DNA of 64,000 bases from an uncultured Gammaproteobacteria bacterium (GTDB lineage: Bacteria; Pseudomonadota; Gammaproteobacteria; Arenicellales; Arenicellaceae), in the NCBI GenBank assembly GCA_964407915.1, contig CAYOXK010000005.1:734-64733 (forward strand), written 5' to 3'. Below are positions 17,828 to 22,582 of this stretch, in pieces. The position numbers and the translations under genes were made by a program. Under the pieces are notes generated by a model. The model worked only from the letters and a program-made list of their open reading frames with translations. It did no database searches and was not told the origin of the DNA. Position 1 is the stretch's first letter, and each line of letters starts with the position of its first letter.

Positions 17828-18763
17828 CTATGCCGTGCGCTTGTTCTGCCACCAATAGAGCAGACCTTGCGCGTTTAAGTTGGCGTCTAAGCGTAACCAC
17901 TCGCGCGCGGTGGCTGTGTCGAGATTGGGTAGTTCGTTGGTGGCCCGCGTTACCAAATAATCTTCAATCCGCTGCCCCAGCGAGTCTGGCTCCCCTGCTT
18001 GCATAACTTGCTTGGTGATCGCCACATAGTCATCAATTTGTTCGTGTAAACCTGCGATGATGCGTGTGCTTGGCGTTAGCTCGCTGTAGTGGGTGGGGTA
18101 GAGTCGGCTCGGGCTTAGCGCCATTATTCGGTCAATCGAGGCGTGCAGAGCGTCGGGATTAAACTGTACGGGAGTCGTGGTGGGGCATACAAAGCTGTGC
18201 TGCTCGTCGCGCAAAGCGCGGTAAGCGATACCGAGTGTGTCGCCCGTAAATACGCATTTAGAGCCTTCGTCCATAATGCAGTAGTGGTGTGATGCATGGC
18301 CCGGCGTGTCGTAAAACGTGAGGGTTTTGCCGCCAAATTGCAGTTGCTCACTGTCCTCTAAAGAGCGCACGCGCGCGGCATCAACGCCTTCGATCGTGCC
18401 ATACAACTTGGCAAATTCAGCTTCGCCATAAACGGCGGTTGCGCCGGCGATCAGCGCCGATGGATCAACCATGTGGCGGGCGCCGCGGGGGTGAACAACC
18501 AGCGTAGCATTTTCGCATAAGCGCATAAGTGCGCCCGCGCCACCCGCGTGATCCAAATGGATATGCGTTAATAAAATCCAATCCACATTGGCAAAGCTCG
18601 CATTTAATCGCTTTAGTGCCGCCTCTATATACGGCACAGAGTCATTGGCGCCAGTATCGATTATGGCAAAGCGATCGCCATCCCTTAGCAAATGTATAGA
18701 GGCGAGCTCGGGTTGATAATAGTGCGCGTCGACCACGAAAATGTCGGGGTTAGAAGTATGCAT
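17828..18763 (-). CDS. MBL-fold metallo-hydrolase
   Basis: THIHLDHAGG, TPGHASHH, FTGD, PTH. Confidence 0.9.
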   Translation of the reverse strand: MHTSNPDIFVVDAHYYQPELASIHLLRDGDRFAIIDTGANDSVPYIEAALKRLNASFANVDWILLTHIHLDHAGGAGALMRLCENATLVVHPRGARHMVDPSALIAGATAVYGEAEFAKLYGTIEGVDAARVRSLEDSEQLQFGGKTLTFYDTPGHASHHYCIMDEGSKCVFTGDTLGIAYRALRDEQHSFVCPTTTPVQFNPDALHASIDRIMALSPSRLYPTHYSELTPSTRIIAGLHEQIDDYVAITKQVMQAGEPDSLGQRIEDYLVTRATNELPNLDTATAREWLRLDANLNAQGLLYWWQNKRTA

Positions 18764-18909
18764 AGTTGAGTTTCTTTACAAAGCGGTAATCATTACAGAG
18801 CGCATTAAACACTATCTACGCCCAAAAAAAATGTAAGAATGAATCGTTCCAGACGTTCTTTAAGTCTGAGTTGTAACTAAAACCATTCACTTTAAGAGGA
18901 TTATTTATT

Positions 18910-19311
18910 ATGCAAAACCAGAAAGTATTGAAAAAAACAGCGGTAGCGACAGGCGCAGGTCTTGCGAGCAGCGTACTCGCCGCTGCGTTGATGAGTGTAT
19001 CATCAGTGGCGTCTGCGGGAGACACCGAACGTTGTGCAGACATCGTTAAAGGCGGCAGCAACAGCTGTGCCGTAAAATCCTTAGGTATTTCATGCCAAGG
19101 TAATGCCACTGAAGACAATATGGTGGGCGCATGGATTAAAGTACCTGCGGGTACGTGTGGCAATATCGTCAACTTGTGTGCCGGAACAGCGGACGCACCT
19201 GAGGGCACTGACCCTAAAAAATTAGCCAAAGCATGCGAGAAAATTGCCGAGCAAAGTGATTCTGCGGTAGCGGGTGGTCGACTCGTGGATAAATTCGGCG
19301 AAGCGATTTAA
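18910..19311 (+). CDS. DUF2282/BufA1-like exported Cys-rich RiPP precursor (atypical, 6 Cys)
   Basis: Signal peptide to about VASA36. ERC...NSC...ISCQG...W.KVPAGTC matches the DUF2282 pattern. Followed by MNIO, DUF2063 and DoxX. Confidence 0.85.
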
Positions 19312-19389
19312 GCAAAAGCAACGCTGGCGTTAGCGCATTAGTTTGTCTATTCACTAGACTAATTTATGCTAACTGCAGCGACGTATTAG

Positions 19390-19412
19390 GGGTGGATTCG
19401 TCCACCCTTTTT
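19390..19412 (+). terminator. Intrinsic terminator between precursor and MNIO gene
   Basis: gggtgga-ttcg-tccaccc followed by ttttt. Confidence 0.65.
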
Positions 19413-19455
19413 ATTTGCCGGTCGCGCCACGCCTAATTATTCGATAATCACCTAT

Positions 19456-21150
19456 ATGTCTTATTCGATGAACACTGTGAACGACATACATGTGGGCTTA
19501 GGTATTCGTCCCGAGCTGTTTGCCGCAGTGCGCGCGGCCAAGCCGCCGCTCGCATTCTTCGAAGCGCACTCAGAAAACTATTTTGGCGATTCTCTTAACC
19601 GAGATTATTTGTTGGATTTAGCGACAGAGTATCCCATTGCTTTACATGGGGTAGGAGCATCGCTCGGTCGCGCCGATGCACTCAATGCCGAGCATTTGCG
19701 TGAACTGCGTCGGCTCGTAGAGGCTGTCAAGCCACTGTTTGTGTCTGATCACTTAGCGTGGAGTGCGTATCAGCACACACATCTTCCCGATCTATTCCCC
19801 GTGCCGCTCACACCACAAGCGTTTGCGGTGGTGTGCGATCACGTGCGCGCGATGCAAGACGCGCTTGGGCGCCAGATATTAGTCGAAAACCCATCAAATT
19901 ATGCGCTGTTTAGCGCGGCGCAATGGCCAGAGTCCCACTTTTTGAACGAGCTCGCCGAGCAAACGGGTTGTGGCGTCTTGCTCGATGTAAACAATGTGTA
20001 TGTGTCGGCGTCTAATGTCGGGAGCGACCCCGTGGCCTATATAGAGCAACTGGAGTCGGGGATTATTCAGGAGTATCACTTAGCCGGTTATACCCCCGTT
20101 ACACGGTCGTTGCAGGGCAAGCCTACGCAACTCTTGATCGACACCCACAATCACCCAGTGCACTCGCCCGTTTGGGGATTGTTTGAAATGACCGTGGCTC
20201 GGCACGGAGTGCGCCCCACGCTGATTGAGTGGGACAGCGACTTCCCTGCGCTGGATGTACTGCTTGGAGAGTGTGACAAGGCCCAGACGCGGTTGCTCAA
20301 GGCGCGGCCGCTCGCGACTGCCACGAACAAGCTAGAGATCGCCAAGACAGAAGCACAAAGTACAGCTCCAGCATCGCAGCACACGAGTAAGGCCATGCCA
20401 GTGGCGCTAGAATTATCGGCATTCCAGCATGGTTTTACGCGGGACGTACTCGCTAAAGCCACCACTACTGCGGCGTTTACCGAATCACACAACGAGCGTG
20501 TTGGTATTTACCAAAACAATGTATTTGCGGCGTTGCACGACTATTTAATGCAAGTATATCCAGCGGTGAATGGCGTGTTGGGCGCGGAGTATTTTCGCGC
20601 ATTGTGTCATTCCTTCTGCGCCCAATATCCGCCTAATTATGGGGATATCCATCGCTATGGTGCTGCTCTGCCGGAGGTGCTGGCTAACGAAGTAGCGTTG
20701 CAGGAAATGCCGTATCTGTATGATTTAGCGCTGTATGAATGGGCCCTGCACAGCGCCTATTTTAGTGCGCAAGGCGAGATGCTTGATCATCAAAACAGTG
20801 ATCAAGCGACATTGCTCGCGACACCGCTTACATTAAACGCAAGCGTAGCCGTCATCGCGTCACAGTATCCAATTTTAGCGATTCACGAGCAGTCCTTACC
20901 TGGGTATGAAGGCGAAGTGGCCATCACCTTACAACAAGGAGGCGACAGCGTTGTAGTGTACAAACAACAGCAATGTGTGCATACGTTCAGCATCCAACCG
21001 ATGCAAGTACACTTTTTTCGAGCACTGCAAAAATCCACCACGTTGATGCAAGCAATTGAGGGCTTGGGCGGGTCTATACCACAAGCACAGTTAAGCGAGG
21101 CGCTGAGTTTATGTTTACGCCATGCTCTACTGAACCCGTGTTCACTCTAA
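19456..21150 (+). CDS. Fused MNIO (DUF692, BufB-like) + DUF2063 (BufC-like) protein
   Basis: N-terminal half: GLGIR, EAHSENY, LHGVG.SLG, SDHLAW, LVENPSNY, LLDVNNVYVS, HLAG, LIDTH, TLIEWD. After an Ala/Thr-rich linker: RVGIYQNN...YPAV...LGAEYF...YLYDLALYEW. Confidence 0.92.
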   Translation: MSYSMNTVNDIHVGLGIRPELFAAVRAAKPPLAFFEAHSENYFGDSLNRDYLLDLATEYPIALHGVGASLGRADALNAEHLRELRRLVEAVKPLFVSDHLAWSAYQHTHLPDLFPVPLTPQAFAVVCDHVRAMQDALGRQILVENPSNYALFSAAQWPESHFLNELAEQTGCGVLLDVNNVYVSASNVGSDPVAYIEQLESGIIQEYHLAGYTPVTRSLQGKPTQLLIDTHNHPVHSPVWGLFEMTVARHGVRPTLIEWDSDFPALDVLLGECDKAQTRLLKARPLATATNKLEIAKTEAQSTAPASQHTSKAMPVALELSAFQHGFTRDVLAKATTTAAFTESHNERVGIYQNNVFAALHDYLMQVYPAVNGVLGAEYFRALCHSFCAQYPPNYGDIHRYGAALPEVLANEVALQEMPYLYDLALYEWALHSAYFSAQGEMLDHQNSDQATLLATPLTLNASVAVIASQYPILAIHEQSLPGYEGEVAITLQQGGDSVVVYKQQQCVHTFSIQPMQVHFFRALQKSTTLMQAIEGLGGSIPQAQLSEALSLCLRHALLNPCSL

Positions 21151-21169: not shown

Positions 21170-21583
21170 ATGATCAGTCTCTACAATGCATTTAGTGCTT
21201 TTGCCATTTCTATTGTCACGCCACTCGCCAATCTTTGGGCGCGCATCTATGTAGGCCTGGTGTTCTTTCGTTCCGGCCAAGCGAAGTTGGCCGACTTTGA
21301 AGAAACCATTGAGTTTTTCGCTGACGATTGGGCCTTACCTTTCTTGCCGGCTGAACCCGCTGCGTATCTCGCCACGGCGGGTGAACTTATTCTACCCATA
21401 TTGCTCATCTTAGGTTTGTTCACTCGGGTCGGCGCATTGGGTTTGTTGCTTATGGCCATCGTGATTCAAGTGTTTGTGTTTCCGATGAACGAGCATTACT
21501 ACTGGATGATTATTCTGGCGCTGCTAGTAGGCCAAGGTGGTAGCAAATTGTCGGTTGATCATTTGTTGCTAAAAACCAAGTAA
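21170..21583 (+). CDS. DoxX family membrane protein (BufD-like)
   Basis: RIYVGLVFFRSG..K, AYLATAGELILPILLILGLFTR, G.SKLSVD. Confidence 0.9.
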   Translation: MISLYNAFSAFAISIVTPLANLWARIYVGLVFFRSGQAKLADFEETIEFFADDWALPFLPAEPAAYLATAGELILPILLILGLFTRVGALGLLLMAIVIQVFVFPMNEHYYWMIILALLVGQGGSKLSVDHLLLKTK

Positions 21584-21661: not shown

Positions 21662-22582
21662 ATGCAGAAAACTAGCCACCCATCGCGTGCCTACATCGGT
21701 CGTTATGCGCCGAGCCCTACCGGTGCCTTGCACTTAGGTAATCTGCAAACGGCCCTTTTGGCGTGGCTGCACGCACGGTTACATGGCGGAACTTTTTTGT
21801 TGCGTATGGAAGATCTCGACACCCCGCGAGTGGTGACTGGTAGCGCAGCGCAGATTGTTGCGGATTTAAGCTGGCTTGGACTAGATTGGGATGGACCAGT
21901 TATTTTTCAATCAGAGCGCTTGGCTTTGTATGATCAAGCTTTTGCCCACTTGCAGCAGCACAATCACGTGTTTCCCTGCTTTTGTTCGCGTAAGGATATT
22001 CGCGAGGCGGCCAGCGCGCCGCATGGTTCGTCGCCTACCTACCCCGGCACCTGCTTGAATTTGAGTGCGCAAGACTGCACCGAGCGCGCGCGCAGTAAAT
22101 CGCCTGCGTATCGCTTGCGTTGTGCACCATCGCTCGGCAGCGCCGAGGATGAGCTTGACTGTTTTGTAGTGAAACGAGCCGATGGGGTGTATGCGTATCA
22201 CCTCGCGGTAACGGTCGACGATCTCGTACAGGGTGTCACGCATGTGGTGCGGGGCGCGGACCTGCATACTAGCCAGACGCAGCAGCGTTATCTAGCGCAA
22301 CTATTAGAGCCGCATCGTGCACCACTGGCGTACCTAAGCGTTCCCTTAAAACTCGATACCGCTGGCCAGCGGATGTCTAAGCGCGATGGTTCTGAATCTG
22401 CGCAACAGTGGATTGCGCGTGGCGGCACGGCCGCAGATCTTGTGGGTAAGTTAGCCTTTGAAGTGGGGCTGATTGATGCCGCTAAGCCACTTAGCGCGCA
22501 AGAACTACTCAAAACCATTGATCTAGATTGTTGGCAAGCGGCGATGACTACCTACTCGCCCATTCGCGCAAGCGCTATTTAG
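21662..22582 (+). CDS. gluQ: Glutamyl-Q tRNA(Asp) synthetase
   Basis: GRYAPSPTGALHLGN, LRMEDLD, CFCSRK, YHLAVTVDD, VVRGADL, RMSKR; lacks an anticodon-binding domain. Confidence 0.9.
   Translation: MQKTSHPSRAYIGRYAPSPTGALHLGNLQTALLAWLHARLHGGTFLLRMEDLDTPRVVTGSAAQIVADLSWLGLDWDGPVIFQSERLALYDQAFAHLQQHNHVFPCFCSRKDIREAASAPHGSSPTYPGTCLNLSAQDCTERARSKSPAYRLRCAPSLGSAEDELDCFVVKRADGVYAYHLAVTVDDLVQGVTHVVRGADLHTSQTQQRYLAQLLEPHRAPLAYLSVPLKLDTAGQRMSKRDGSESAQQWIARGGTAADLVGKLAFEVGLIDAAKPLSAQELLKTIDLDCWQAAMTTYSPIRASAI

Follow-up and report, generated by a model that had tools for sequence, protein, structure and literature searches.

A six-cysteine variant of the Buf1-type bufferin precursor in an Arenicella-like lineage of Gammaproteobacteria

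Among the RiPPs modified by MNIOs, bufferins form the largest known group. The window analysed here, a 64,000-nucleotide stretch of DNA from an uncultured gammaproteobacterium of the family Arenicellaceae, carries a gene that, as judged by profile match and alignment, encodes a Buf1-type (DUF2282/BufA1) bufferin precursor with a complete four-cysteine core. Beyond this core the protein continues into a C-terminal extension containing two additional cysteines, C90 and C109. Our results define a conserved, selected and lineage-restricted six-cysteine variant of Buf1, which adds incrementally to a known system and is not a system of a new kind.

The precursor and its four-cysteine core

The bufA reading frame encodes a protein of 133 amino acids and follows a Shine-Dalgarno-like sequence (Table 1). 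By inspection, its N terminus has the features of a Sec signal peptide, including a Lys-rich n-region, a hydrophobic core formed by a 20-residue stretch, and a cleavage motif in which ASA precedes GD. The predicted mature protein, cleaved after Ala36, comprises residues 37-133 (97 aa). Export by the Sec route is characteristic of bufferin precursors (PMC11626156). Residues 40-87 match positions 2-49 of the 53-position profile PF10048 (DUF2282/BufA1) with a score of 44.7 bits (E = 1.4e-11), above the cut-off of 22.4, and a search among NCBIfam profiles gave no match. In a profile search of the whole source genome (2.92 Mb, 99.5% complete), the protein scores 46.1 bits against PF10048 and is the sole DUF2282 match. 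A chance reading frame, or an artefact of annotation or assembly, is ruled out by the conservation, dN/dS values and synteny described below.

Table 1. Features of the six-cysteine bufferin locus in the window (positions are those of the 64,000-nucleotide stretch)
Feature	Position	Strand	Basis or remark
Metallo-beta-lactamase-fold gene	17828-18763	-	divergent, upstream
Shine-Dalgarno-like AAGAGGA	18894..18900	+	9 nt 5' of ATG; read from sequence
Six-Cys bufA reading frame	18910..19311	+	
Predicted Sec signal peptide, residues 1-36	18910..19017	+	sequence inspection
Buf1/DUF2282 core, residues 37-89	19018..19176	+	PF10048 match, Cys spacing, alignment
CysI, C42	19033-19035	+	core
CysII, C53	19066-19068	+	core
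CysIII, C62	19093-19095	+	core
CysIV, C83	19156-19158	+	core
Lineage-specific C-terminal extension, residues 90-133 (~45 residues)	19177..19308	+	homologue conservation
C90	19177-19179	+	extension
C109	19234-19236	+	extension
Intrinsic-terminator-like hairpin and T-run, 9-bp stem AGGGGTGGA-TTCG-TCCACCCTT	19388..19417	+	between bufA and bufBC
Fused BufB (MNIO) and BufC (DUF2063), 564 aa, presumed modifying enzyme	19456..21150	+	profile matches
DoxX (BufD-like) membrane protein	21170..21583	+	PF07681, 75.2 bits; kept in related loci
GluQ-tRNA synthetase-like gene	21662-22582	+	downstream

HMMER was run exhaustively against 1.84 billion representative sequences and yielded 183 matches at E <= 0.001, of which 150 are listed. 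Among these listed matches, 108 of the 150 DUF2282 representatives have exactly four cysteines at spacings of 11, 7-10 and 21, and the canonical C-terminal end is P.GTC(E)K(I)(V)GG. A first-pass annotation of the sequence had held that DUF2282 proteins typically have four cysteines and an end of the P.GTCEKI type, which is borne out by these counts and by sequence logos. The same annotation, whose start coordinate of 19033 is the codon of C42, placed the cysteines of the precursor at residues 42, 53, 62, 83, 90 and 109, and these positions are exact.

The first four of these cysteines are spaced at 11, 9 and 21 residues. Because this falls within the canonical pattern, we assign C42, C53, C62 and C83 as CysI to CysIV and regard C90 and C109 as the extra pair. 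A MAFFT alignment also places C83 at CysIV, with GNIV(N/S)(L/I) opposite the canonical EKIVGG, and the Pfam alignment agrees. In addition, the Ile and Val of the canonical end motif are retained as I86 (100% conserved) and V87 (95%). The first-pass annotation had further described the first cysteine motif as altered, and the alteration is real. Specifically, the position CysI+2 is Asp in 38 of 42 six-cysteine proteins, compared to Gly in 101 of 104 canonical representatives and in all 26 four-cysteine paralogues from Arenicella. The position CysIV+2 (C83+2) is Asn in 38 of the 42.

Assignment to Buf1 is based on the PF10048 score, the spacing of the four cysteines, the signal peptide identified by inspection, and the linkage to MNIO, DUF2063 and DoxX genes. 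Membership in Buf2 (BUF_6/12Cys) was considered and rejected, as the DUF2282 signature is present and none of the six cysteines has a Lys residue directly after it. We propose to define a six-cysteine Buf1 protein as one that carries the core, a cysteine at CysIV+7, and another at +19 (rarely +21) from there that is followed by x-K-[IV]-A and usually by GG-x-[LV]. The window protein and all 120 listed homologues (the best 120 of 237 clusters) fit this definition, as do several divergent proteins (L002_a, L004_a-c, L005_a-b, P0121, P0126 and P0174).

Conservation, distribution and genomic context

A search for homologues gave 237 clusters (clustered at 90% identity), and the 120 best of these share 68-100% identity with the query. 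The spacing 11-9-21-7-19 is common to all 120 of these listed homologues (the best 120 of the 237), and the +7/+19 pair is retained in P0121 (55% identity), P0126, P0174 and the tandem copies of loci L004 and L005. The single spacing change seen among six-cysteine proteins is the +21 that replaces +19 in L005_b, and it falls in the predicted inter-helix loop. Among the homologues compared, there is no intact protein with just one of C90 and C109. On this alignment, a six-cysteine DUF2282 subfamily such as the first-pass annotation had envisaged exists, and it is not among the characterised BufA1 proteins or in published descriptions (PMC11626156, PMC12452194).

The extension carries the conserved motifs APEGT, KxxxKAC-x-K-I/V-A-x-Q and GGRLVD. 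In a set of 151 distinct mature sequences, the top residue has a mean frequency of 0.84 in the extension (residues 90-127) compared to 0.90 in the core, and A96-P-E-G-T100, K107, A108, C109, K111, A113, Q115 and G122-G-R-L-V-D127 are near-invariant. Neither His nor Met is conserved anywhere in the extension in this same set. Pairwise Nei-Gojobori estimates of dN/dS, which are rough values at a dS of ~1.5, amount to 0.076 in the core and 0.143 in the extension. Given the dN/dS of 0.14, the near-invariant motifs and the presence of the extension in 21 of 23 genomes of the genus, the C-terminal module is, on the evidence of its sequence conservation, under purifying selection and functional. An association was also noted between Asp44 and Arg124, where Asp occurs with Arg in 145 of 147 sequences and Gly occurs with Ser, Lys, His or no residue in four of four, although this pattern is confounded by phylogeny.

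The first-pass annotation had read the C-terminal region as a GTCEKI motif split by a 26-residue insertion. The resemblance on which this reading was built is real, and the protein text read as the split motif (GTC ... AGGRL) is literally present in the reading frame. However, an insertion is one possible alignment only, since the Pfam and MAFFT alignments pair C83 with CysIV. The Lys at C109+2 is 99% conserved, compared to 86% Lys or Arg at the canonical CysIV+2, and no column of the extension varies more than the one with the 'E' of 'CEKI' (Gly 29%). Against the canonical HMM, the protein scores 61.9 bits when cut after C83, 67.7 bits when GNIVNL is included, and 71.8 bits when residues 84-109 are deleted, such that the deletion construct outscores the natural continuation by 4 bits. 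Because both segments resemble the canonical tail, these scores do not discriminate between insertion and extension.

Within the extension, HMMER aligns three colinear weak fragments (PkGT with PEGT, CeKIv with CEKIA, and vGgsl with AGGRL). The canonical C-terminal HMM run against the extension alone gives a mean of 2.2 bits, which is not significant as it lies below the 95th percentile of the shuffles (2.6). The ordered pattern P.GT...C.[KR][IL]...GG arises in 14 of 1,000,000 composition-preserving shuffles, in a test devised once the sequence was known. The module probably arose when the C-terminal motif was partly duplicated in tandem and the copy degenerated, which fits better than a single insertion. 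Copy 1 would be the contiguous VPAGTC83GNIV, and copy 2 would consist of APEGT, eight residues, C109xKIA, seven or eight residues, and GGRL, and would thus be interrupted twice.

A scan of species-representative genomes identified 39 six-cysteine loci, mostly labelled Arenicella or uncultured Gammaproteobacteria, with the others being in one 'Candidatus Oxydemutatoraceae' MAG and a few probably mis-binned MAGs. When residues 83-133 alone were used as a query against 151 genomes sampled across the order of the window, the extension was matched in 21 of the 23 genomes of its GTDB genus, in none of five genomes that represent the family's other genera, and in no genome of the order's remaining families (~128 non-genus genomes in total). 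The six-cysteine variant is confined almost wholly to one marine Arenicella-like genus. In a quick tree of the core region (52 columns), 39 six-cysteine sequences form one clade with an SH-aLRT value of 98, and three divergent six-cysteine copies branch among the Arenicella four-cysteine paralogues without clear placement. The six-cysteine form may have arisen once, an origin with which the core tree is compatible.

The locus from Candidatus Oxydemutatoraceae (L002/L043) lies on a 2.05-Mb contig between IS1595 and rve transposases and restriction-modification genes. This setting, unlike that of the Arenicella loci, may reflect mobility or a reduced, rearranged genome.

In Caulobacter vibrioides, the bufferin genes are laid out as bufA-bufB-bufC-bufD (PMC11626156). 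The window locus has the same layout, but with bufB and bufC fused into a single gene that begins 144 nt after bufA. The fused protein matches PF05114 with 299 bits (residues 13-278) and PF09836 with 60.6 bits (residues 323-408), and it scores 315.6 bits against NF050167 (MNIO_BufB), for which the cut-off is 310. The fusion is present in every related locus with a complete gene, with reading frames of 530-580 aa in the genus. Outside the genus but in the same family and order, BufB (~290 aa) and BufC (~270 aa) are encoded by separate adjacent reading frames. Both the fusion and the extension are traits of the lineage to which the window belongs.

Gene order is shared across the related loci, where a metallo-beta-lactamase-fold gene on the opposite strand is followed by six-cysteine bufA, an optional four-cysteine bufA, bufBC, the DoxX gene and a GluQ-tRNA synthetase-like gene. 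The two outer genes flank nearly all of these loci. A canonical four-cysteine paralogue lies beside the six-cysteine gene in 26 of 39 loci, and the remaining 13, including the window, have only the six-cysteine form. One member of the genus (G023) has only a four-cysteine bufA ahead of its fused bufBC, so the two lineage traits, fusion and extension, are not mutually dependent. Since loci with six-cysteine precursors only, with both forms and with four-cysteine precursors only all carry fused BufBC, one enzyme evidently serves both types of precursor. The locus in the MAG of Arenicella sp. PBSgam11 (L004/L044, 6001-9839) has three tandem, mutually divergent six-cysteine bufA genes 5' of bufBC and a four-cysteine bufA after the DoxX gene, giving four precursors for one enzyme.

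A hairpin resembling an intrinsic terminator, together with a T-run, follows the six-cysteine gene not only in the window but in most related loci (L001-L042), and the stem sequences differ among them. In loci with two precursors, the hairpin is usually 3' of the six-cysteine gene and not of the four-cysteine gene. This arrangement suggests that the six-cysteine gene forms a transcription unit of its own, or an attenuated one, in front of the (four-cysteine bufA)-bufBC genes, with the putative terminator function deduced from the sequence.

Predicted structure and fate of the extra cysteines

The mature protein was modelled with AlphaFold2 from a 128-sequence alignment. The best model has a mean pLDDT of 84.5 and a pTM of 0.74, and the other four have pLDDT values of 62-77, so that one of five exceeds 80. 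In precursor numbering, the predicted core consists of a strand at residues 39-43 that includes C42, a loop with C53 and C62 that forms the block of lowest pLDDT (62), and a strand at residues 75-79 (WIKVP). A helix at residues 83-91 holds both C83 and C90, and it is followed by a loop, a helix at residues 102-110 that ends at C109, and a third strand at residues 124-126 (RLV). The pLDDT around C90 and C109 is 87-91 per 10-residue block.

In the published model of Buf1, a disulfide links the first strand of a two-stranded sheet to a short helix (PMC11626156). The AlphaFold2 core appears to reproduce this arrangement, with the extension predicted to lengthen the helix and to add a second helix and a third strand. 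The first-pass annotation had suggested, as one possibility, that the extra cysteines close a second subdomain, and the prediction indeed seats them in an additional folded element. For the divergent member L004_b, the model has a similar order of elements, but its pLDDT of 51 is too low for it to be informative. A sequence search of the PDB with the family profile found nothing meaningful, and a Foldseek comparison of the model with the PDB gave no match at E <= 0.001.

In Buf1, CysII and CysIII are converted to 5-thiooxazoles, and CysI and CysIV are joined by a disulfide (PMC11626156). For the six-cysteine precursor, we favour as the probable outcome thiooxazoles at C53 and C62, the canonical disulfide between C42 and C83, and a second, structural disulfide between C90 and C109. 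In this scheme, the fused BufBC enzyme would turn C53 and C62 into 5-thiooxazoles in the cytoplasm, as in Caulobacter Buf1, and the precursor would then be exported by Sec and cleaved after Ala36. In the periplasm, C42 and C83 would form the CysI-CysIV disulfide, and the C90-C109 pair would staple the helix-loop-helix, with the GGRLV strand that follows packing onto the core sheet. This would yield a copper-binding bufferin of 97 amino acids, larger and more rigidly cross-linked, with a single thiooxazole metal site. Its two heterocycles and two disulfides would together shift the mass by -12 Da.

Several observations favour the C90-C109 disulfide. Specifically, the two cysteines are always gained together, the lone spacing change (+2) falls in the predicted inter-helix loop, and the extension lacks a conserved His or Met. 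Moreover, both cysteines are in confidently predicted helices, whereas the known modified cysteines are in a flexible loop. A bond between C83 and C90 would be impossible because they are seven residues apart within one helix, and the C42-C83 pairing is favoured because the core geometry that places C42 near C83 is conserved. DsbA has a preference for linking free cysteines that follow one another in the chain as a protein is exported, and once C53 and C62 are modified this preference would yield C42-C83 and C90-C109. An alternative pairing of C42 with C90 and C83 with C109 may also fit the modelled secondary structure taken alone, with C90 and C109 near the C-terminal ends of their helices.

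It is unlikely, in our view, that C90 and C109 are further substrates of BufBC, which would give four 5-thiooxazoles and a second or enlarged copper site similar to that of Buf2 on a Buf1 scaffold. Six-cysteine Buf2 provides the counter-precedent to a second disulfide, as its four central cysteines are modified, carrying -4.03 Da shifts, and just the outer two (CysI and CysVI) form a disulfide (PMC11626156). The DUF2282-type MNIOs also need little sequence around a target cysteine (10.1101/2025.11.18.689057), and both C90 and C109 are invariant in the 120 listed homologues (the best 120 of 237 clusters). However, these residues reside in helices modelled with a pLDDT of 87-91 rather than in a flexible loop like that of CysII and CysIII, there is no Cys-Lys as in Buf2, the extension offers no accompanying His or Met ligands, and the same enzyme serves ordinary four-cysteine paralogues in 26 of 39 loci. 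Were this reading true, the protein would bear four heterocycles and two sites for copper, and it would show how, in nature, a RiPP metallophore can gain a metal site by partly duplicating its own C-terminal motif.

The chance is slim that the two residues instead stay as free or reversibly oxidised thiols, forming a Cu(I) bis-thiolate or redox-sensing site in the absence of enzymatic modification. Several copper chaperones bind Cu(I) through two cysteines on adjacent helices, but DsbA normally oxidises cysteine pairs in proteins exported to the periplasm. The DoxX-type proteins have been discussed in connection with thiol and oxidative stress (PMC12452194), although there is no CxxC or similar metal motif and nothing observed here specifically favours such a site. 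Least credible is the notion of the extension as a recognition or docking 'follower' for BufBC or another partner, with the cysteine pair being secondary: BufA1 is modified when its signal peptide is absent, so recognition involves the core peptide (PMC11626156), and the extension and the BufB-BufC fusion are restricted to the same genus, but in 26 of 39 loci four-cysteine paralogues that lack the extension lie directly 5' of the same fused enzyme, and G023, with a four-cysteine form only, shows that the fusion does not need the extension.

Comparison with known bufferins

Published surveys describe Buf1 proteins as having four conserved cysteines and place six or twelve cysteines in the unrelated Buf2 group (PMC11626156; PMC12452194). 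The literature we covered on bufferins, DUF2282/BufA1, thiooxazoles and Arenicella MNIOs, which is an incomplete set, contained no six-cysteine Buf1 subfamily. Databases already label the six-cysteine homologues as members of the BufA1/DUF2282 family. The occurrence of six-cysteine and four-cysteine precursors under one enzyme creates a natural matched pair for asking what sets which cysteines an MNIO modifies, and this pair could also reveal how extra disulfides or sites affect copper affinity and stability. Both forms are present in the cultured strain Arenicella sp. 4NH20-0111, and the question is therefore directly testable.

The closest counterpart is Bufferin 1 of Caulobacter vibrioides (BufA1, CCNA_03363), which has the same Pfam signature, Sec signal, 11/x/21 cysteine spacing and W-x-x-V-P-x-G-T-C motif, and the same linkage to MNIO, DUF2063 and DoxX genes. 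The window protein differs in its conserved C-terminal module of ~45 residues with two invariant cysteines, in having Asp for the 97%-conserved Gly at CysI+2, and in having Asn for Lys or Arg at CysIV+2. Moreover, its BufB and BufC are fused, and SigF/NrsF genes are not adjacent. Bufferin 2 (BufA2; BUF_6/12Cys) is similar in its six cysteines, Sec signal, modification by MNIO and DUF2063 proteins, and relation to copper. However, Bufferin 2 lacks the DUF2282 signature and has six central cysteines with Cys-Lys motifs, whereas the first four cysteines of the window protein are of the Buf1 type and the extra two are in a C-terminal add-on devoid of Cys-Lys.

Other DUF2282 proteins (P0252, P0263 and P0245) also have extra cysteines after CysIV, at spacings of 19/6 or 11/10 or in a Cys-rich GCxSC tail. 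These tails are unrelated in sequence to the extension described here, apparently independent, and rare (a few of the 150 listed representatives). P0227 (282 aa) joins a DUF2282 domain to a C-terminal part that bears a thioredoxin-like WxxDCxxC motif, and this bufferin-thioredoxin-fold fusion is missing from the fusion list of PMC12452194. The Buf1/Buf1, Buf1/cytochrome c and MerC/Buf1 forms in that survey (PMC12452194) indicate that DUF2282 tolerates N- and C-terminal additions as well as internal duplication. Those forms involve whole domains, whereas the window protein apparently repeats only the last motif of ~14 residues, in degenerate form, to yield a two-cysteine module, and it possibly offers a view of how small proteins grow by partial internal duplication.
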